DNA of 38,234 bases from Cladosporium halotolerans (taxonomy: Eukaryota). The position numbers and the translations under genes were made by a program. The stretch is taken from the NCBI RefSeq assembly GCF_011745625.1, contig NW_027191493.1:124001-162234 (forward strand), written 5' to 3'. Within the stretch, counting starts at the first letter, position 1. Each line of letters opens with the position of its first letter. Shown here piece by piece: positions 3,318 to 30,836 of this stretch. The notes below the pieces were generated by a model. It saw only the letters and a list, made by a program, of their open reading frames with translations. It searched no databases and was not told the DNA's origin.

Positions 3318-5261
3318 ATGGCCGACGACGAAGTCGAGGACGTCGCGCGCCAGGTCGCTGGCTCCATCTCTGAGCGGATGCCGACTGTGATCACCCAGTT
3401 GCTTCATAGAAATTTCTCCGGAAGCATTGATGGCCTGCGTCTCGATTGCAATGTTACCCTTGGAAGTGCTTCGTGTATAGGCCAGGAGCCCATGGTGCAG
3501 GTCATCTCGGTCGATGTTGGGAGCCTATTGAGACAATTTCCAAGTCGCATGGATACAACGACCATCCAGCTTGCTGCGCCGACTTTTGATAGAGCGCCTC
3601 TGCCGCCACCGGAGCCTGTGGGAGGCGTCTCGAATGCCATTGAAGCACGCAATTTCAGACCGCGCTCGACCTTGGTCACACCGGCTCCTACGCCCGAAGA
3701 ACAATGCGACGAGCCTCCGTTGAAAACGCGGAAAGCCACCGGCGGCTTGCGAGTGGTCGTGGATCCAAACGCAGAGCCTGGTTCTACTGGCAACACTGCA
3801 CGCAGGCTGGAGAGTGCTGGCCGCGTCTTTCCCCAGCGCAAAAAGAATGTCGGAGACAACCCTGTCTTTCAGCCGTCGTCTCTCCAAAAATTTGTAAAAG
3901 GCGTCTTTGAAAGCATCTACTCGTCTTTGAAAATGGACCCGACCGAGGTCATCGAGCAATGGCAGGCCATCGAGTTCAACGGCCAGCCGAAACTTCTCAC
4001 TAGCACGGAGAGTGAGCTTGCTGCCAGAGACAGCTCTCTGAACGGAGGCGGTACTTTTGGCAGGATGAGTATCCTCGCTCGCAAACTTACACAGACCAGC
4101 CGAACTTGCAGGTCGCTTGAAGTGATTGTACAAGCAAAATGGGTGCAATTGTTTGACGACCGCGTTCATGAATTGTCCGCATCTATGAGTAAGGAGAAGG
4201 CGAAGAAGAGTACTATCTCAGAAGCCTGTCTCGACTTCAACTGGACGGAGAAAGAACTGCGCAACAGAATGGGTGTCTGGCGCGGTTACCAAGACATCCA
4301 AAAGGCTGGCGGCTGGGCAGCCTTGGTCTTCGCTGGCATGGGCCTCTATCGCTTCTGCAAGTACCGGGTATCATTCAACGAGGAGACTTTCCAGGCTCTC
4401 CGCGCTCTGCGACATAGATTCGAGGTTGCGGCCGACACTCTCCACCCTCGCTGGAGACACCTCCTCGGCATTGTAGGCGCATCTACCGAACGCAAATACA
4501 CTGGTCACCCACACGACTACGTAATTGGTATGCCAAACAATGAAGCCGTTCCCCTCTCCATCACCTATCAGCAATGGGATAAAGACTTCAGCTTCATCCA
4601 TCTCGACACCTGCCAAATCGACGAAGACGCCTGGGGCCTTTACGACCCCCGTGTGGTCCACGCCGCCCACAAGGAAAGCGCCCATACCTGCCAAATCTGC
4701 CACGAGCGCCAGTCCGACGATCCGCCGCAAAACAACTGCTCATGTTTCCCAAACCTCTACCCACAGACCATCCCACACAACGCCCCCGTTCAAGTCTACC
4801 GCACTCCCAACGGCCGCAACAACGGCCTTGTCGCGTGCTTGCCTTTCGATCGTGGCACGGCTGTCGGCGAGTTCGTCGGCCAGGTCACGTCCGGCTTGTC
4901 AAATCTGGACGTCATGGTGGGCCAGACGGAGAGCGCCAATTATCAGATCTGGCAGGGGCGGCAGGGCAATTACACCAGGTTTGTGAACCATTCTTGCCAA
5001 CCGAACAGCCAGTATGAGCGGTTCATGTGGATGGGCACGCAGAGAATCGTGCTTGTGAGTAAGGGAATCGAGGCAGGCGAGGAGATTACGGTCGACTATT
5101 CGGATACTTATTGGAAGGTGAGTGTTCAAGTGATGCATTCTGTAGTTTCGCCTTGAGGCTGACGATTTGTGTAGAATCTCGACAAGGAGTGTTTGTGTGG
5201 ACAGCCGAAGTGTCGGTACAAGAGCCGGTCTCGAATTTTGACGCCGCCGCAAAGCCGCTGA
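3318..5261 (+). CDS. SET-domain lysine methyltransferase-like protein with post-SET; exons 3318-5117 and 5175-5261
   Basis: SET motifs RFVNHSCQPN and EEITVDY. Intron GTGAGT (5118)...GCTGAC...TAG (5174). The spliced second exon gives NLDKECLCGQPKCRY (post-SET CxCx4C), with stop at 5259-5261. Confidence 0.88.
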
Positions 5262-5364
5262 AGAGGCCTCATCAACGTCTACAACGATTTCGCTGCTACA
5301 ACAGAGTGACTTCGCGGAGCTCATCGTCTGTGAAGATCGTTTTGATTTCGAAATACAGGAATCT

Positions 5365-7085
5365 CTAAGCTAGACTATCGCGCCTGGAATCCGCTGGCAC
5401 AGTCCGAGGCCTGAACTTCGTGTGGAAGTTGAGCTGCCGCACGAACCACGCATTGAAGGTCTGCCACTCGCTGCCAGGTGTTTCCAGCTCGACCTCGAAG
5501 TTTCGGAGGAACGTGGGTACCAGCTTGTAGATTTCTAGGAGACTAAAGATGGAGTCGTCAGTAAAGGGTTCGTTCTGGACGACAATTCTGACGGCAGGGT
5601 AGTCTTACCTGATGTTCTTGCCGATGCAAGTACGCGCGCCGGCGCCGAACTGGAACATAGTCGCCTTCATCTCCTTCAGCTGAGCTGGCGGGGCATCAAG
5701 CCAGCGCTCAGGTCTGAAATCGTCGACATCTTCGCCGAAGATCTCGGGTCGGCGGTGCAGGACCCAGGCATTGCAGCCGACGATGGTTCCACCGGGAATC
5801 TGTTCTCCGCAGATTTCCATTCCTTGAGGCGGCACGATGCGTTCAAGAATGAGACCGGGTGCTGGGTGAAGTCGGAACGATTCTTGGATCACGGCGTCAA
5901 GGAACGGCAGAGTCTGGCTTTCCTTCCATCCAACTTTGTGGTACGGTTTCTCGCTGATCGTTCCGTTGCGCGCGGCTTCGTCGAGCTCTTCCATCAGCTT
6001 CTTGTAAGCTTTGGGGTGCTTGACGAGGTTGTAGAAGACGCTGCTAAGGCTGATGGCTGTGGTCTCGGAGCCGGCGAACACCATGCTGTTGCAGGACGAC
6101 AGTACCTGTTGATCGGTCATAAACTCGGGGTGGTCGTGCTGCGCTTGGGTGAACTTAGTGAGCAAGTCGACTCCCTTGCCGCTCGACTCATCCGCCTCGC
6201 CCGTCTCGCGGACTTTGCTCATCTCGCTTTCGCGAGCGGCGGATTGCTTGAGTGCGAATCGAGTCACTGGGAACATCTTGTTCGTAACGCCCCACCGCTC
6301 CAGCGCGAGTCTGATCGGGTTCTTCTGCCAGACCAGATCAAGCAGAGGCATCTGCCCAACCGGGCCAGCATACGCGAGGAACCGACCAATAAATTCAACA
6401 ATGCCTTCAACGTCCTCGTTTTTCTCGACAAATCCAAGGCGTTTACTCCATGTCAGGTCGCCAATGACATCGAAGGCAAAGAACTGCAACCACTGTGCGA
6501 AATCACAGGTCTTGCCAGATTCCAGGAACCGCTTCTGCGTCTGCTCGATGAACACGTCCGTCGTGCTGTCTACCAACGGCTCGTAGTTCACCAGCGACGA
6601 CATAGAGAAGGCGTTGTTCACGCATCGCCGGTACTTGGCGTGGTACCCTTCGTCTGTCGTGCTGAAGAGCGAGTAGATCGGCCGGCCTTTCGAGATAGCT
6701 GCTTGTACTGGGTAGAACTCGGACTATCCAATTGCGTTAGCACTGGCCGAGAAACGGTACAGATGACGGAGAAACTCACCTTAGTCATGCCCTTGTTCAG
6801 CCCGTAGATGGCTTTTATCGCCCGCGGATCCGCGAACGACAACACATTCGGCCCCAGCCGCACGACGTCGCCGTGCTTCCGGTGCAATTCCACGTGCGTC
6901 CATTGTGCTTTTCGCCCACGCACGTCGAAGTACCGCCACCAGTTTGTGTAGCCTGCCAAAGGGTGGCCAGGGTATTTGTTGAGGCCGTTATGGAATTTGT
7001 TTTGGAGTAGTCGGATGGCGAAGCCGGAGATGAGGATAATGGGCCAATAGGCCCGGATGAGCGGGAGCAGCTCGCTGGCCAGCAT
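5365..7085 (-). CDS. Cytochrome P450, pisatin demethylase/CYP57-like; exons 7085-6780, 6723-5609 and 5542-5365
   Basis: N-terminal membrane anchor followed by YPG, VVRLGPN, I-helix AGSETTA, ExxR (ESFR), PERW and heme motif FGAGARTCIGKNIS. Two GT-AG introns with branch sites restore one continuous frame. Confidence 0.93.
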
Positions 7086-17462: not shown

Positions 17463-19133
17463 CTACTTTGCGGCGAATTCCAAAACACAAACCCAGCCCT
17501 CTCCCTCCCCGCTGCCAACCCCACACTCCCAAACCGGCACGCACCTCACGTTCACCCCATCTCCCACAGCCGTCTCAAACTCCCCTCCAGCCGCAAACTC
17601 AGGCACCCCGGTGACAGTCGCTATCACCGCTTCCCTGAGCTTCCGCCCACTGAACGCTTCCTTGCCGTCCATCGCCGCGAACTTCTCTCTCATCTCGCCA
17701 GAGACGAGCGGGATCTTGACGCCGACCAGCAAGCCGGAGGCGTCGAAGCGGGAGGGCTGGAGCAGCATGAAAGTGCTGTGGGCTGTTTGATGAGCCGATA
17801 GAAGGGTGAGGAGGGAGCGGGTTTCGGGCGTGCAGGTCTTGCTGGTGAGAGTTGGCAGCGTGGCTTTCGCTGCTGAAGAGGGAGCTGGCGGTTCTTCGGC
17901 GCCGTCCAGGTTGGCCCAGTCGATGCTGGGACTGGACGCGGCTTCTGGTGATGGGGTGGCGGGGACGGGTGTGAGGATCTCGATGTCGTCGAGAGTGCAG
18001 GCTTGCCCGCGCGCGAACTCGGCCAGCGCCGCGTACTGGAATTGGTGCGTCAGGTCGGTTTCTACGAGTAGTGTGAGGGACTTTGCGCCCGTTTTGCGGT
18101 CGCAGCCGGAGTGTAGTGTTTGCAGGGTGATTCTGCTTTCGGGCGCGATGGTGCTTTCTGGTGGAGAGATCAGGAGCTTGCTTGTGTGTGAGACACCGTA
18201 GGGTATCGCGAGGTGGGTGCAGTGGCCGGGTGGAAGGGAGGACGCGGAGGACTGAATCACTGGGCAGCCGGAGATGGTGGTGTCGATGAGGGCTAGGGTG
18301 CTGGGGTCTTCTGAGATCAGTAGGTTCGCTGTTGAAGCGGGATGCTGGCCTTCGAGATTGCTCAAAGATGTGCTGCTGCTCGCACTCTCATGTGACACAT
18401 CGCTGGGAAGCTCGTCAAAATATGCTCTGCGGACGCGCTTCTGTACCAGCGGAGTCGCGGCCAGAGCTGTAGTCAGCCGGTCCACTTGGGCGAGGGTCAG
18501 GCTTACTTTGCGCTTGTTCGATCCCCTCTTCGGAGTCGCCATGTCGACCTTTAAAGGCTCTTGGAATGTCAAAGCCTTCAACTTCTCGCTAATCTCACCT
18601 TTGCTATCTGATTCCGCGGCAGGAGTGACTGGTGGAGTGGGCTGCGGACTGGACAGGAAGACCGAATTCTTCGTCGCGTCGATGGGCGAAAAGTAGATAT
18701 CGGTACTGGAGCCGCCAGAGCTTGTCGGTGTATGGGTAGGAGAGTTCTTCTCACGACGGCTGGCGCTCCTAGCAAGGTGGGAAATCGGCGGTGTGATGTA
18801 TTCGAAATACTGGCTCATACGTCCGTTGAGGAACTCAGGCCCCTCTTTCTTGCCGTTTGTCATCCCAGCCTCGGATTCATTGACAGTTGAAGGTATCTTG
18901 AGCTTCAGCTTCGCAGAACACTCACGCTGAGCTCCCTTTTTGGATCTCAATGCGATCTCAGATATTGTTCTCACAGGCAGTGGAGGTAGAGGCCTTTCGG
19001 GCGGCGGGCTGCCATCAAACTTGAGATTGCGCGCTGTATCTGATGTACTGTCAGACTTCGACGTGCTCCCTGAGATCCGCGTGCGGCCCATCAGCTGCGC
19101 CGCAGAGGAGACAGTGTAGTCTGAGGAAACCAT
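17463..19133 (-). CDS. Hypothetical protein: disordered S/P-rich N-terminal half plus a possible degenerate LOV/PAS region and PAS-like C-terminal domain
   Basis: 556-aa ATG-started ORF with coding-like composition. LALIDTTISGCPVIQSS...GHCTHL...VETDLT and TFMLLQP...RCVPV...GWVCVL resemble segments of fungal LOV proteins. Confidence 0.75.
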   Translation of the reverse strand: MVSSDYTVSSAAQLMGRTRISGSTSKSDSTSDTARNLKFDGSPPPERPLPPLPVRTISEIALRSKKGAQRECSAKLKLKIPSTVNESEAGMTNGKKEGPEFLNGRMSQYFEYITPPISHLARSASRREKNSPTHTPTSSGGSSTDIYFSPIDATKNSVFLSSPQPTPPVTPAAESDSKGEISEKLKALTFQEPLKVDMATPKRGSNKRKVSLTLAQVDRLTTALAATPLVQKRVRRAYFDELPSDVSHESASSSTSLSNLEGQHPASTANLLISEDPSTLALIDTTISGCPVIQSSASSLPPGHCTHLAIPYGVSHTSKLLISPPESTIAPESRITLQTLHSGCDRKTGAKSLTLLVETDLTHQFQYAALAEFARGQACTLDDIEILTPVPATPSPEAASSPSIDWANLDGAEEPPAPSSAAKATLPTLTSKTCTPETRSLLTLLSAHQTAHSTFMLLQPSRFDASGLLVGVKIPLVSGEMREKFAAMDGKEAFSGRKLREAVIATVTGVPEFAAGGEFETAVGDGVNVRCVPVWECGVGSGEGEGWVCVLEFAAK

Positions 19134-19815
19134 GAGTCCTGTTCGAATAAGTCAAAAAGTAGGGAGTGTTTCGTAAGTCGAAACCGACCAGGGACACCAC
19201 ACCGCCCAGCAGTGTTCAACAAATGTGTCGTGAAAGTGGTGTGGGAGGTCTCAGACCTCGCTAATCGTGCTGCAGCGAAGTTGGGGAATTTTGAGACTTG
19301 CTCACCTGGCGAGGGAGTAGCATTTTGCAAAGATGGTCAGTTTGGACAAAGGGAAGTGTGGTCTTTGAGGACGGAGATTGGACAACGTCATCAGGCGGCG
19401 TCAAGACAATGCAATGTAGCAAGGCTGAAAGAAAGGACAAAGGGATTGCGGAGGGGGACAAGGTGAGGTCGGTTTCTGAGGGTTGCGGGTCGAGTAAAGC
19501 TGGTGTTTGACACGTGATTGGACTTGTATTCGTGTGATCGTTCAAATTTACAGTAAAATCGCCTGTCTGCCATGCTTATTATGCATATCGCGCTTATGTG
19601 TGGTCTGTCGGTTCTCCGTGAACCCGTGCATCGCTTTGTTCCATGTGATCTCATCGACAAGCTGTCGTGAGCGCACTGCGCCGTGATGGAAGAAGTTGAA
19701 TGAATTAGGAGCAGCCAGTTCTTAGGTCCGAGAACACTGTCGTAGCTCGGCTTGCCAAAAGCGACTTTGCCGGCAGTCCAGTGTCAGTGCTTGAGTGGCA
19801 CACTGCCACAGCTGT

Positions 19816-26531: not shown

Positions 26532-27101
26532 AATCGGTCACAGAGGGGTTTCAACCAATGTTAATTTTTTTTTACTGGGATTGCTTCATATTGGTGCTTA
26601 AGTAACTCCATTCGAGGACTTTGCGTTTTTTTCTCTCATTCGAAAGCCAATGAAAATCTTGACAACTCCTTAGAAAGGCCCAAGATCGGTCGTGTGAGTG
26701 CCCGCAAATCGTAGATTCTCCGCCGCGTCATGTTGGCGAATGCCGTATCATGTGCTGAGCTGTGGACACACCAACATAAAAATCGCTCGTCTATCGTTCC
26801 AAATCCGCCATAGATTACTTAGTTGGGCAATTGCATAATTTCTCGTTTCTTGGAACCTGATCTCTTCTTATCGTGTACCAGCGTGAACTCTAAATTCAAC
26901 TATACAGAGTCCAGTCATAATGAAAGATATTGCGGCTACGCACATGCAAAGAAAATGGCGGTGTGGTATACGTGTCCTGCAGTTGGAGATATGGAATCTG
27001 ATAATGTAAGGTAGGTAGACTTGAGATTCACACTTCGCTTTCTCCAGATCTCGCTCGTTCGTCATTAAATTTTTCTGACCCCATACCTCCTAATACCTAC
27101 C

Positions 27102-28730
27102 ATGGTTTCCTACAAGACTCCCTCAAGCAGGCTTGCTCATTATCAGGCTTGGACCAATGCCTGGCTTGCTACCAAGCCATCTGATCTGCCAGCCGAAGAA
27201 TGCTTGTCAATTGTAGAGGCAGAATGCATTATTTGGATACATCAAGAGGAAGGTCTTACGAATCAAGACACCAAGTGGTTGCACAGGCTTGTCGCTTGCT
27301 TCAAAAAAGCCGCAAAAGCCCGAATCATCCGTCTAGGCGGTAGTGTTCCACCATCGTGCGATGAGTGCGACGTGCTGTCCGAGAACTATGATGCCCGGGT
27401 CGAGTGTGGCTGCTCTGGCCTCTACCCTGTACCGAGGACCTTTGGTGCGGCCGAGCTAAAGAGCTGCGGATGCAAGTCAATCGAGCGCATGATTTCAGCA
27501 GGCGAGCTGGTGAACACCAAACAGGATGAATGGAATCGCTCGGTCTTCTTCTCCTCGAAAGGACTGTCCTCAGCTATGACAGAACTCGCGCTCTGCCACG
27601 CGGACATCCAGCCTCGACCTTACACTTGCCTCGGAACCAAAGCTTGGCCTGAAGTTCGAGCACCGGATCGCAAGCCTCATCCTGACAGAGACCTCGACGA
27701 GAGCACCTACAGCGAGCTGTTCCCGACGCATGAGCGCATACGATTGAGCGCAGACGCAAAGCATTTTTTCGCCGTGGCAAGCGGTGCTTCACTGATCGAT
27801 GCCGGGATACAAATGGCCATTTCAGATTCAGGAAACGACATTCTGATCGGGGATTATTGTGACGCAGCCTCCGAAGACTGCCTCATGGCCCTACAGCAGA
27901 TCGGTGCCGCTGCCTTTGCCTTTCTCAAGCTGTGTGTCTACGCCGGCTTGATGACAGACTCGCATTTCGACCACCTCGTGGCGCAGACGATTCAATTCCG
28001 CATCATTAGCTACTGGAGAGACCACGCCCTGTCACGACGCCCTAGCGGCGTGTACGGTAGTCGTATGACAGGGATGGAAGTTCACCGACACATTGACCTA
28101 GGAATGATTGTCGGAATAGTCACCGCCTCGATAGCGACGGGACAGACCTTGACTGCAGAAGAATACAAAGAAGTGGTCGACGCGACCGTCCTCATCAACG
28201 ATCTCATCGACTTTCGTGGCGATACATGGAGGAACCAACGCGAAAATGTTGTCCTTCGTGGAGTCCGAGGATGCTTGTGCAGCTACCTCGACAGCCTACT
28301 GTGCAACTGCATTGGATCTGCCGCGGACTTGGTCTCGCGTGGTGGGATTTTCGCCCTCAACGTCATGTGCTTCTGCAATTGGATGTTGATGAGCTCTGGA
28401 CATAAGCTGTTCGAGACATTCCACGGAACGCACCCATCTGGCGAAGACCAACTATGCCACTATAAGTCAGAAGACAGCGGCGGGTTCGAAGCGCTTCTGG
28501 GAGCTCTTGAGTCGTATGGTACCCTTGGCGAAGATGGTCCCAACATCAATATGAGGAGGAAGGATCTTCAGCTTCGCTATTCCAGGCACCGGCAGACTCC
28601 CGAGACCCACATCAGATGGATGGCGGATGTCGTTCGAATTGTGTTACACCCGAAGACTCTAAGGCGACTTGTCGATGTCGTGCATTACTCTTGGTCTGGC
28701 AAGCTGGGCAAAATTGATTATTGCGCATGA
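27102..28730 (+). CDS. Uncharacterised 542-aa protein with class I isoprenoid synthase/terpene cyclase-like motifs and a Cys-rich N-terminal region
   Basis: Intronless ATG ORF. Acidic motif SDSGNDILIGD, RHIDLG (RxxDxG), NDLIDFRGD followed by ENVV, then NW. Function inferred only. Confidence 0.8.
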   Translation: MVSYKTPSSRLAHYQAWTNAWLATKPSDLPAEECLSIVEAECIIWIHQEEGLTNQDTKWLHRLVACFKKAAKARIIRLGGSVPPSCDECDVLSENYDARVECGCSGLYPVPRTFGAAELKSCGCKSIERMISAGELVNTKQDEWNRSVFFSSKGLSSAMTELALCHADIQPRPYTCLGTKAWPEVRAPDRKPHPDRDLDESTYSELFPTHERIRLSADAKHFFAVASGASLIDAGIQMAISDSGNDILIGDYCDAASEDCLMALQQIGAAAFAFLKLCVYAGLMTDSHFDHLVAQTIQFRIISYWRDHALSRRPSGVYGSRMTGMEVHRHIDLGMIVGIVTASIATGQTLTAEEYKEVVDATVLINDLIDFRGDTWRNQRENVVLRGVRGCLCSYLDSLLCNCIGSAADLVSRGGIFALNVMCFCNWMLMSSGHKLFETFHGTHPSGEDQLCHYKSEDSGGFEALLGALESYGTLGEDGPNINMRRKDLQLRYSRHRQTPETHIRWMADVVRIVLHPKTLRRLVDVVHYSWSGKLGKIDYCA

Positions 28731-28981
28731 TGACAGGGGAATATTGGAATTTCTCAAGTACAAGTATGACCATTCACTCAACTGCAATGTAATTGATGGT
28801 GATAGATCAGGTTGAATGATGGTCTGAAATATCGATCCATCATTGGGTTCCTCACAGGTGCGGATCACTTCTCGATTGTTAGCGTGTGGAACGCAAAAAT
28901 AATAGAAGTTCCCGGCCAGATCGTGCAAAAAGCACCATAGCACATGGTGTTGTGAAGTTTTGCGGTGGCCGAGAAATCTGA

Positions 28982-29632
28982 TCATAAATATATGGAAGCG
29001 ACTTGGAAGTGTATATCCTCTCTCAACCCCTCCATACCGGCTGTGTGCGTGAAGCCCTTTTTGAGGACACTCGTAGCACCTGGAACGGGCTCAAAGCCCA
29101 TTCGTGGCCAGAAGTCTCCAGTCTCTATCCGCGAGTAATTGACAAAAAGCCGCGAACCACCTTTCTCAACCGCCGCTTTCAATATGGCGTCAAGTAGGAG
29201 CCTACTTAGCCCTCGTCTCCTATGTGTTTCATCGACGCAGAAGCAGCATATTTCCCATTCCACGGCTGAGTTGAATGGCGCGGGCGATTGACCGGAGTCA
29301 GTAGGAGAAGATGCAGTCTGACCCTGTCCAACCTCGGCGCTCTTCTCTTTGTTGATCCAGTCGATACCTCTGAACGGTAAGAGGCCGCCGCAAGCTGAAG
29401 GGATGCCGTCGAGCAGTAAGACGGCGAGGTAGCCGTCGACTCCGAGTTCCTCCGCCAGGCGCTCAATGCCGATAATTGGGTTTGGATTGAGACGAGTCCA
29501 AGAGGGTGGAAAAGCCTGGATGTCCTTTCGCTTGAAGGACGAGATGATCATGGAATGCAAGGCCGAAGTCCATGGCTGGCTCGGTAGGGCTGCCGAGGGG
29601 ACAACGGCTATTTCCGGGATGAGCGAGGTCAT
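28982..29632 (-). CDS. GNAT-family N-acetyltransferase
   Basis: ATG at 29632. Acetyl-CoA motif A EICCFCVDETHRRRGLSRLLL and motif B FWPRMGF. Intronless. Confidence 0.85.
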   Translation of the reverse strand: MTSLIPEIAVVPSAALPSQPWTSALHSMIISSFKRKDIQAFPPSWTRLNPNPIIGIERLAEELGVDGYLAVLLLDGIPSACGGLLPFRGIDWINKEKSAEVGQGQTASSPTDSGQSPAPFNSAVEWEICCFCVDETHRRRGLSRLLLDAILKAAVEKGGSRLFVNYSRIETGDFWPRMGFEPVPGATSVLKKGFTHTAGMEGLREDIHFQVASIYL

Positions 29633-30836
29633 GGTTGTGGCGCGAGGCGTCACCAATAGTGCGCGCGTGAGACGGAGTGCTGACGAACAAATGGACCGCG
29701 CTTGTCCGGCGGTCTAGGAATGTCACCTTTGGGCGTCTGATCGCATATAAGTAGATGTTTGGCTGCGATAGTATGAATCACGGAAGCGAGCATGGGCGCA
29801 GACTTGCTTTCGAGTCACCATGTGAGTGTTCAGCTGCGCAGCGCAGTGGAGCACCGGTATCATTGTCATGGTGAAGATGCTGCGCAGGTATGTTGCCAAT
29901 TGTTGGACTCGTTTGCATGTTATGTTACCTTTCGAAGGATCGCAGGCGTCGCGCACTATTGGCCATAAATCTCCTACACACGCCGGCAGTCGCTTAGACC
30001 AGAGGTGTCACCGAGAAGGACAAATCGTTCTCAGTCCTCCTCCGCCTTGGGCTTCCATGGCTCGGATGCCTCGGCAGAGCTATTCTTGTCATAACGGCGC
30101 CGGCTAAGGCGCCACGGCGAGGCTGAGGCGGCGCTGCCGCGGAGGGCGGCGGGCAGAGTCGATAGTCTGCTTCGGCCTTCGCGTCGAGCAGCCTCTGCGG
30201 CGTCTGCGCAGATCTGGTGGAGGATGCAAGTAATAATATTGCCAAGGCGCAGGTGTCGTGCGGAGAATTGATCGAACAGACCGGCTGTCATGCACGCAAT
30301 AAACACACGTGCATACCTACACACAACAGACCGCCGCCTACCGCGTGGCCGGACAAGGCCTTATCCACCTCCACGCCCATCTCCGCTGCAGCCGCTCACT
30401 GCGCCGTGCGTGCGCGTCCGTCCGGTGCCGCAGACGTCATCAGCCTGCGACCGGGCAAACACTGCGGTACCAGAGTGCGTGAGGTAGCTGTTGCTGGTAT
30501 AGTCGCCAGCCGACTCGCTCCGGCCGCGTGCGCTCCATTTGCGAGCACAGAGAGGCTTACCTGAGCTGCCCCAGGCTCTTCACTACCTTATCCAACCTCT
30601 TGCGCCCCTCCGCAGACCTCGTCTCTTACTTGCGCGCTGCTTTCCGTTCTGACTCGCCGTCTCGGCCTGAGACATGAAAGCCTTGTGATGACTCTGCGCT
30701 GACTGGAGGCTACAAATCGCCCTGCGCTGTCTGTACCCTGAAGAACCTGGACCGCGGGCTCTCATTAGAACGACAACAGATCACCGGGACTGTCAAGGCC
30801 GGTGTCGCATGCTGCCTGAGACCCGCGTGAGACAAA

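Follow-up and report, generated by a model that had tools for sequence, protein, structure and literature searches.

In the genome of Cladosporium halotolerans, we identified a gene that probably encodes a Mg2+-dependent, diphosphate-ionising terpene cyclase of class I type, belonging to an uncharacterised, non-canonical fungal family and resembling in its action VigB, the vinigrol cyclase of Virgaria nigra. The gene is located at positions 27102–28730 on the forward strand of a 38,234-nucleotide stretch (RefSeq assembly GCF_011745625.1, contig NW_027191493.1, positions 124,001–162,234), which we analysed as a whole and refer to as the window. The gene is intact and conserved, the motifs of its product are conserved as well, the predicted structure is a confident helical model, and this model has fold neighbours among class I cyclases.

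The protein family and its conserved motifs

Both the list of open reading frames (ORFs) and translation of the coordinates yield a protein of 542 amino acids (aa) with no internal stop codons, as stated in the sequence-only reading of this DNA that we followed up. The same reading described the protein as an orphan, a label that has to be abandoned, as at least 100 homolog clusters were found by a word-indexed search of 5.8 billion clusters, and 80 matches at E ≤ 0.001 (five of at least 475 aa, the remainder fragments) by an exhaustive phmmer search of 1.84 billion 50%-identity representatives. Among the matches listed by the former search, the weakest has E = 2e-93, and identity over the aligned segments is 97% for one homolog and 38–74% for the others. 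Phmmer returned solely the protein's own family, which is thus compact and is tied by HMMER to nothing else.

All 21 organism-named homologs among the matches listed are fungal, including 20 from Ascomycota (genera Cladosporium, Clathrospora, Penicillium, Aspergillus, Talaromyces, Pseudogymnoascus, Neoarthrinium, and Gomphillus) and one Tricholoma record. The family is widespread in Dothideomycetes, Eurotiomycetes, Leotiomycetes, and Xylariales, and its members occur in Aspergillus niger, A. tubingensis, and Penicillium citrinum. A spread into bacteria, raised in the sequence-only reading, was not observed: a motif scan combined with tblastn over one genome per species from 185,579 prokaryotic species revealed no relatives, none of the 63 pattern matches being related. 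The sole basidiomycete-labelled homolog (P0059 from Tricholoma furcatifolium) shows 49% identity, approximately the same as the Penicillium and Aspergillus homologs, and could be a case of contamination or horizontal transfer.

Canonical class I terpene cyclases carry a DDxxD/E motif on helix D, an (N/D)Dxx(S/T)xxxE motif (NSE/DTE) on helix H, and an arginine–tyrosine (RY) pair near the C-terminal end of the core. In the translated protein, SDSGNDILIGDYCD occupies residues 241–254 (27822–27863), RHIDLG residues 329–334 (28086–28103), INDLIDFRGDTWRNQRENVV residues 365–384 (28194–28253), and NWML residues 426–429, with a spacing of 37 residues from R329 to N366. All these elements are found where the sequence-only reading had placed them, and it was equally right that no RY pair follows the tryptophan, the place being taken by H434-K435-x-(Y/F)437.

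Conservation was assessed in an alignment of 39 sequences with 38–70% identity to the query (alignment A1) and in 89 members of the family that are 480 aa or longer, to which all counts over 89 refer. In both sets the two acidic motifs and the RxxDxG element are kept across the family, in agreement with the sequence-only reading. Residues D367, D370, D374, Y252, R329, D332, R306, R377, W427, H434, and E438 are invariant (89/89), while N245, H308, R372, R380, and K435 are conserved in 88, D251 in 87, and N366 in 85 sequences. Retention of the candidate catalytic residues in 85–89 of 89 sequences at an overall identity of 38–70% supports a cyclase function, and, as judged from the sequences, the motifs go beyond chance. 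The gene and the features of its core region are as follows.

27102..28730, forward strand: intronless gene for the 542-aa protein (P0001), stop codon included (ORF list, translation, collinear full-length homologs of 540–550 aa, contigs of run X2 without joints)
27699..28421, forward strand: predicted class I terpene-synthase-like helical core, residues about 200–440
27834..27860, forward strand: candidate first metal-binding motif N245-D246-x4-D251-Y252-C253 (N245 88/89, D246 82/89, D251 87/89, Y252 89/89, C253 85/89; end of helix 245–252)
28017..28064, forward strand: conserved basic loop R306-D307-H308...Y318-G319-S320-R321 (R306 89/89, H308 88/89, G319 88/89, S320 87/89, R321 77/89)
28083..28103, forward strand: H328-R329-x-x-D332-x-G334 (R329 and D332 89/89; at residue 334, 67 of 89 have G and 22 have A; break between helices 329–332 and 336–346 by DSSP on the model)
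28197..28247, forward strand: candidate second metal-binding motif N366-D367-x-x-D370-x-R372-x-D374 followed by R377, R380, E381, and N382 (D367, D370, D374, R377 89/89; R372, R380 88/89; N366 85/89; helices 352–369 and 371–376)
28377..28415, forward strand: N426-W427...H434-K435-x-(Y/F)437-E438 (W427, H434, E438 89/89; K435 88/89; at residue 437, 66 of 89 have Y, 16 have F, and 6 have H)

The first of the two acidic motifs is a candidate counterpart of DDxxD and of D260YGT in VigB. The second can be read, from its sequence, either as an NSE/DTE-spaced triad N366/D370/D374 or as a DxxDxxxD triad D367/D370/D374; under the former reading it retains the i, i+4, i+8 spacing, in line with the NSE-like nature ascribed to it earlier, as well as the helix position, yet aspartates stand for both S/T and E. 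Residues of the basic loop, which is confident in the full-length structural model and poorly modelled when the domain is folded alone, are candidates for diphosphate binding. The H328–G334 segment is a candidate diphosphate-sensor/effector element, and the H434-K435-x-(Y/F)437 region may be a functional counterpart of the RY pair.

Predicted structure and likeness to known cyclases

AlphaFold2 applied to the full-length protein with the 39-sequence alignment produced a confident, mostly helical model of the alpha-helical class I (isoprenoid synthase) fold, with a predicted local distance difference test score (pLDDT) of 92.9 and a predicted template-modelling score (pTM) of 0.93. D251-Y252 is placed at the C-terminal end of helix 245–252. 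In a structure search of 48,161 chains, all of the best 50 rows have the isoprenoid-synthase fold, mainly in class I cyclases; cyclases constitute rows 1–32, and transferases rank lower. Residues 200–530 folded alone with an 11-sequence alignment gave a less confident model (pLDDT 78.1), for which 47 of the best 50 rows have the same fold, two are UbiA-type prenyltransferases, and one is unclassified. Hence, the fold type proposed from the sequence agrees with both models. Fold neighbours of the full-length model include, with their scores:

8h4p, CLM1: 10.7
8zaf, SkABA3: 10.5
8zac, BcABA3: 9.9
8kih, PhmA: 9.9
7oc4, AsR6: 8.7

When positions are interpolated between the ends of the aligned ranges, CLM1 D114 comes to lie within about 8 residues of D251 and CLM1 N243 within about 6 of N366; being an interpolation on a model, this is consistent with their equivalence and is not a proof of it. 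The closest Atlas clusters by language-model features (0.90–0.92) include the TRI5 and Terpene_syn_C_2 families, and the UniRef name of one homolog (P0097) starts with "Terpenoid synthas".

VigB is a 589-aa "hypothetical protein" that acts on geranylgeranyl diphosphate (GGPP) in a Mg2+-dependent manner; its ColabFold model is similar to CLM1, the residues sensitive to mutation are D260YGT, R339 next to the helix-kink residue G340, N369DIQDYERD, and Y436 together with its partner in an RY-like pair, and truncation of its terminal domains abolishes production (Tsukada et al., PMC12703729). Counterparts of these elements follow in the same order in the studied protein: D251YCD for D260YGT, R329, which precedes a kink, for R339, N366DLIDFRGD for N369DIQDYERD, and K435-L-F437 for Y436, with positional offsets of 9, 10, 3, and about 1 residues, as compared through the motifs quoted in the paper and not by alignment. 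This match of motif order and spacing supports a cyclase function. Other shared traits are the "hypothetical protein" label, a length well beyond that of canonical cyclases (542 and 589 aa), extensions at both the N- and C-terminus, CLM1 as a structural neighbour, and having been missed by sequence searches. The proteins differ in that G340 of VigB directly follows R339, whereas the Gly/Ala of the studied family comes five residues after R329; further, altered helix connectivity is reported for VigB (PMC12703729), and the vigB cluster contains a GGPP synthase and a P450, whereas the studied gene is situated outside such a cluster.

A second parallel is provided by TriDTC (Tri4155), a harziane/trichodermanin diterpene cyclase of Trichoderma with an essential D445xxD448xxxD452 triad, in which alanine at each of the aspartates leads to loss of product (Yang et al., PMC12370890). 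The triad D445VGD448LCAD452 corresponds to D367LID370FRGD374, present in 89/89 sequences of the studied family, and this match, too, supports a cyclase function; the residue before the TriDTC triad is not named in the report (PMC12370890). TriDTC active-site residues 33–36 and 124–128 positions upstream of its triad parallel the kink (33–38 positions) and the DY pair (115–116 positions) of the studied protein, whose triad is situated about 78 residues earlier. The two proteins also share a helical-barrel model, a long N-terminal region, an intronless gene, and the lack of an InterPro/Pfam family; no InterPro family covers TriDTC, its genes mostly lack introns, and the authors propose that it arose de novo in Trichoderma (PMC12370890). 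Their taxonomic ranges are different: the 38 homologs of TriDTC found by BLASTP (47–97% identical) come only from Trichoderma, Metarhizium, and Ophiocordyceps (PMC12370890), in contrast to the studied family, where none of the 21 named homologs listed belongs to these genera.

When set against canonical class I cyclases (trichodiene synthase 1jfa, LrdC 6oh6, T-muurolol synthase 9hqd, CLM1 8h4p), the protein is similar in having an acidic residue at a helix end, a triad N/D-x3-D-x3-D that lies on a later helix and is spaced as in NSE/DTE, and an RxxDxG-like element at a helix break. It differs from them in having a single D251 plus N245/D246 for DDxxD, Asp for both Ser/Thr and Glu in the triad, H434-K435-x-Y/F for the RY pair, about 200 additional N-terminal and about 100 additional C-terminal residues, and no Pfam match. 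The fungal or bacterial ABA3 cyclases (BcABA3, SkABA3) are likewise non-canonical, all-helical, and missed by motif searches; their Mg2+ cluster is chelated by one conserved Glu, they are described as having no NSE/DTE equivalent, and they possess a remote Zn2+ site (Li et al., PMC11695735). The conserved three-residue acidic triad at the NSE/DTE position sets the studied family apart from this type. Structure-based mining yields further non-canonical classes, often encoded outside clusters (Abe et al., PMC11234867). Humulene synthase AsR6 (class IC) and the actinomycete classes ID, IE, and IF resemble the studied family in being class I-like yet non-canonical and in having been recognised through context or structure (PMC11234867), and class ID shares an ND-type motif with it; the complete motif sets are different, namely D(N/D), ND, and RxxKD for class ID and Asp/Lys residues for AsR6.

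A literature search by locus tags of family members and for non-canonical cyclases retrieved no paper on the family, the supplementary homolog list of the VigB paper possibly including a member. One retrieved article (PMC13459410) has the VigB paper in its reference list only and is irrelevant. Thus, the suggestion that the family is undescribed stands insofar as no characterised member was found, and does not stand for the motif logic, which was published in 2025 for VigB and TriDTC.

From the motifs, the model, and the likeness to VigB and TriDTC, we infer metal binding, substrate binding, and catalysis of the following kind. The protein would be soluble and would bind a prenyl diphosphate, farnesyl diphosphate (FPP) or GGPP, in the helical barrel of residues about 200–440. 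Mg2+ ions would hold the diphosphate between D251 with N245/D246 on one side and the N366/D367-D370-D374 triad on the other, with basic residues R306, H308, R321, R329, R372, R377, R380, and H434/K435 also contributing. Ionisation of the diphosphate would produce an allylic cation, which would undergo cyclisation in the lower, hydrophobic half of the barrel. The D332–G334 kink may serve as the sensor/effector, and the core may be buttressed by the extensions at the two termini, a Cys4 metal site possibly among their features.

Counter-evidence and alternative explanations

Several observations weigh against a terpene cyclase. The DDxxD motif is absent, the region reading N245-D246-I-L-I-G-D251-Y-C-D254, where the only conserved acids are D251 (87/89) and D246 (82/89) at a different spacing; the RY pair is absent as well, with H434-K435-x-(Y/F)437 conserved at the corresponding place. 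Pfam assigns no family to the 542-aa protein at E up to 10, and at the same threshold matches none of the 39 alignment members to a terpene synthase or to any other credible family. Searches of the PDB by sequence yielded nothing relevant, since the only matches, MscS at E of about 0.03 for the single protein and a phage tail fibre at E 0.29 for the family profile, were judged to be noise. Foldseek, a comparison suggested in the sequence-only reading, matched neither model to a PDB entry at E ≤ 0.001; E reached 0.18 at best for the full-length and 0.32 for the domain-only model, and the domain-only list is topped by low-probability ABC transporters. The best full-length row is MoeN5 (E 0.18), with pentalenene, aristolochene, dehydrosqualene, and squalene synthases among the other weak rows, and the domain-only rows with a template-modelling (TM) score of about 0.4 are terpene or prenyl synthases only.

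Genomic context adds to the same side. Within the 38-kb window, neither a prenyl diphosphate synthase gene nor any further terpene gene is present, and in 13 metagenomic loci with homologs there is no adjoining prenyl diphosphate synthase, P450, or terpene synthase and no conserved partner. Homology to VigB or TriDTC is not demonstrated; phmmer and a length-restricted profile search gave only in-family sequences; the latter, run with a profile of residues 200–530 against proteins of 584–2000 aa, produced seven in-family variants with extensions and no fusions, an empty result that constitutes weak evidence. Two 589-aa proteins, P0074 and P0077, which have the length of VigB, were considered as its kin and rejected, as their sequences bear the motifs of the studied family and not those of VigB. 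If the family is related to VigB or TriDTC, this kinship would be at the superfamily level. Finally, some TriDTC homologs were inactive in two hosts (PMC12370890), hence the presence of the motifs is no guarantee of activity.

An isoprenoid-synthase-like fold could serve another role, such as different chemistry on phosphate or diphosphate esters, or non-catalytic binding or regulation, and we consider this unlikely. It would accord with the housekeeping-type neighbours in the window, with the low transcript cover relative to the neighbouring gene in run X2 (described below), with the documented inactive homologs of TriDTC, and with the many invariant cysteines and large terminal extensions, atypical of cyclases; moreover, no activity has been shown for any family member. 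At the same time, the three aspartates at metal-triad spacing and about ten basic residues are strictly conserved over 38–70% identity, which points to metal-dependent catalysis on an anionic substrate, and the match to VigB spans four separate elements in the same order. Such catalysis might also be that of a prenyltransferase built on the terpene-synthase fold, which would move a prenyl group from a diphosphate to an N, O, or C acceptor with no cyclisation. The presence of DabA among the structure matches of the domain-only model agrees with this possibility, whereas the filling of the best 32 rows of the full-length search by cyclases, with transferases below, makes it quite unlikely, as does the cyclase activity of VigB and TriDTC, the enzymes nearest to it in their motifs. 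In the protein we identified no feature suited to acceptor binding, nor is there a conserved partner gene over the 13 loci, and nothing specifically supports the FlvF-like C–N prenyltransferase proposed earlier as an option.

It is very unlikely that the similarity is coincidental, i.e., that an unrelated helical bundle bears terpene-synthase-like motifs by chance. A chance similarity would give a mixed list, and the lists comprise one fold class in 50/50 best rows over the 48,161 chains and in 47/50 rows for the independent domain model. The weak Foldseek rows of the best probability and TM-score are terpene or prenyl synthases as well, and in the model the motifs lie on the expected helices in the expected order. 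A class I-type terpene cyclase seems to us the probable function of the protein.

Terminal regions, genomic surroundings and significance

The core is flanked by terminal regions with the following conserved features.

27102..27695, forward strand: N-terminal region, residues 1–198, with three long helices, a long ordered coil, and invariant C102, C104, C124, and C176 (secondary structure and pLDDT of the model, cysteine counts)
27405..27413, forward strand: invariant C102-x-C104, together with C124 (27471–27473) and C176 (27627–27629) (39/39 in alignment A1)
28617..28724, forward strand: conserved C-terminal extension W506-x-A-D509-x-x-R512, D525-x-x-H528-x-x-W531...C541 (invariant columns of alignment A1; 86–87 of 89)

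An Atlas look-up of residues 1–198 gave no usable match. The N-terminal cysteine cluster noticed in the sequence-only reading is present as C86DEC89D, C102GC104SG, and C122GC124; within it, C86 (27/39 in alignment A1), C89 (4/39), and C122 (9/39) are not conserved. Cysteines C102, C104, C124, C176, C393, C452, and C541 are retained in 39/39 members, and four more in 33–37 of 39. So many conserved cysteines are unusual here, since inspection by eye reveals no signal peptide in the protein. Disulfides or one or more structural metal sites may be formed by them, and C102/C104/C124/C176 is a candidate metal site, a suggestion prompted by the remote Zn2+ site of ABA3 cyclases (PMC11695735).

The window has the character of fungal nuclear DNA, with a guanine-plus-cytosine content of approximately 50–60%, and its recognisable genes encode RRM, SET, P450, zinc alcohol dehydrogenase, ubiquitin/UBA, CorA-like, purple acid phosphatase, GNAT, Ysc84, and Na+/H+ exchanger proteins. 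The purple acid phosphatase and GNAT acetyltransferase genes flank the studied gene. The P450 gene (5608–6723, reverse strand; Pfam E 1.5e-53) is located approximately 20 kb upstream and, given this distance and the intervening housekeeping genes, is not counted as clustered. A 562-aa ORF at 17466–19151 (reverse strand) has no Pfam family.

Neighbours vary over the 13 metagenomic loci, including porphobilinogen deaminase and GH5 at two loci, a flavin adenine dinucleotide (FAD) monooxygenase, NmrA-like, and UstYa genes at two others, and elsewhere a GMC oxidoreductase, a copper amine oxidase, and a fungal transcription factor. Loci L003 and L008 share the upstream genes for porphobilinogen deaminase and GH5; in addition, L008 has a Tc5/pogo-type transposase (HTH_psq, HTH_Tnp_Tc5, DDE_1; positions 3412–5193) directly upstream of the homolog, which looks like an insertion polymorphism. 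In the related loci L004 (5845–7243, 10019–11162, 12763–13542) and L005 (2012–3429, 6212–6889, 8277–8675), the homolog is situated between the FAD-dependent monooxygenase and the NmrA-like gene with a UstYa-family gene beyond, an arrangement that may represent a lineage-specific tailoring context. In L013, a 598-aa ORF with no Pfam family (4210–6003, forward strand) adjoins a partial homolog of the studied protein.

Run X2, from a relative with 95–99% identity, has contigs only over 27069–28736, with both flanks bare and with no joints. Its contig of the neighbouring GNAT gene (28900–29656, reverse strand; ORF 28982–29656) has a loose end of 25 T at 28900, which suggests a polyA site. Depth is 429 for the GNAT gene and 2–9 for the studied gene, although contig depths cannot rank expression. 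The coverage pattern and the 25-T tail fit polyA RNA and an intronless, weakly covered transcript, a hint that the gene is weakly transcribed in this close relative. Run X1, in which a 10-kb contig shows even cover of the gene and its flanks, probably represents DNA, and run X17 contributes two short contigs only, so that X2 is the sole run behaving like RNA.

A broader interpretation, which we offer only tentatively, is that the studied family, VigB, and TriDTC each form a branch of a single ancient superfamily of "long" class I-like cyclases in fungi, in which C102/C104/C124/C176 would be a structural metal site new to the class and whose members would make unknown terpene scaffolds. Such a superfamily would be characterised by one acidic site of the DY type and an (N)DxxDxxxD triad, along with an HK/RY element of basic nature and long extensions at the termini. 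Were it real, the de novo origin of TriDTC from non-coding DNA in Trichoderma would be wrong, and genes outside clusters would be the source of such scaffolds in Aspergillus niger, Penicillium, and Cladosporium.

Cyclases unseen by standard searches are a known blind spot of genome mining, and newly recognised cyclase families have each brought new carbon skeletons, such as vinigrol, harzianes, and gersemianes. The family described here is invisible to Pfam, stands apart from terpene genes, and is present in well-studied and industrial fungi. If a member proves active, the family would be an unaccounted source of fungal terpenoids, with DY...NDxxDxRxD...HKxY as a beacon for mining, and would allow one to ask whether the "unprecedented" VigB and TriDTC families each arose in isolation or belong together in a single old superfamily.

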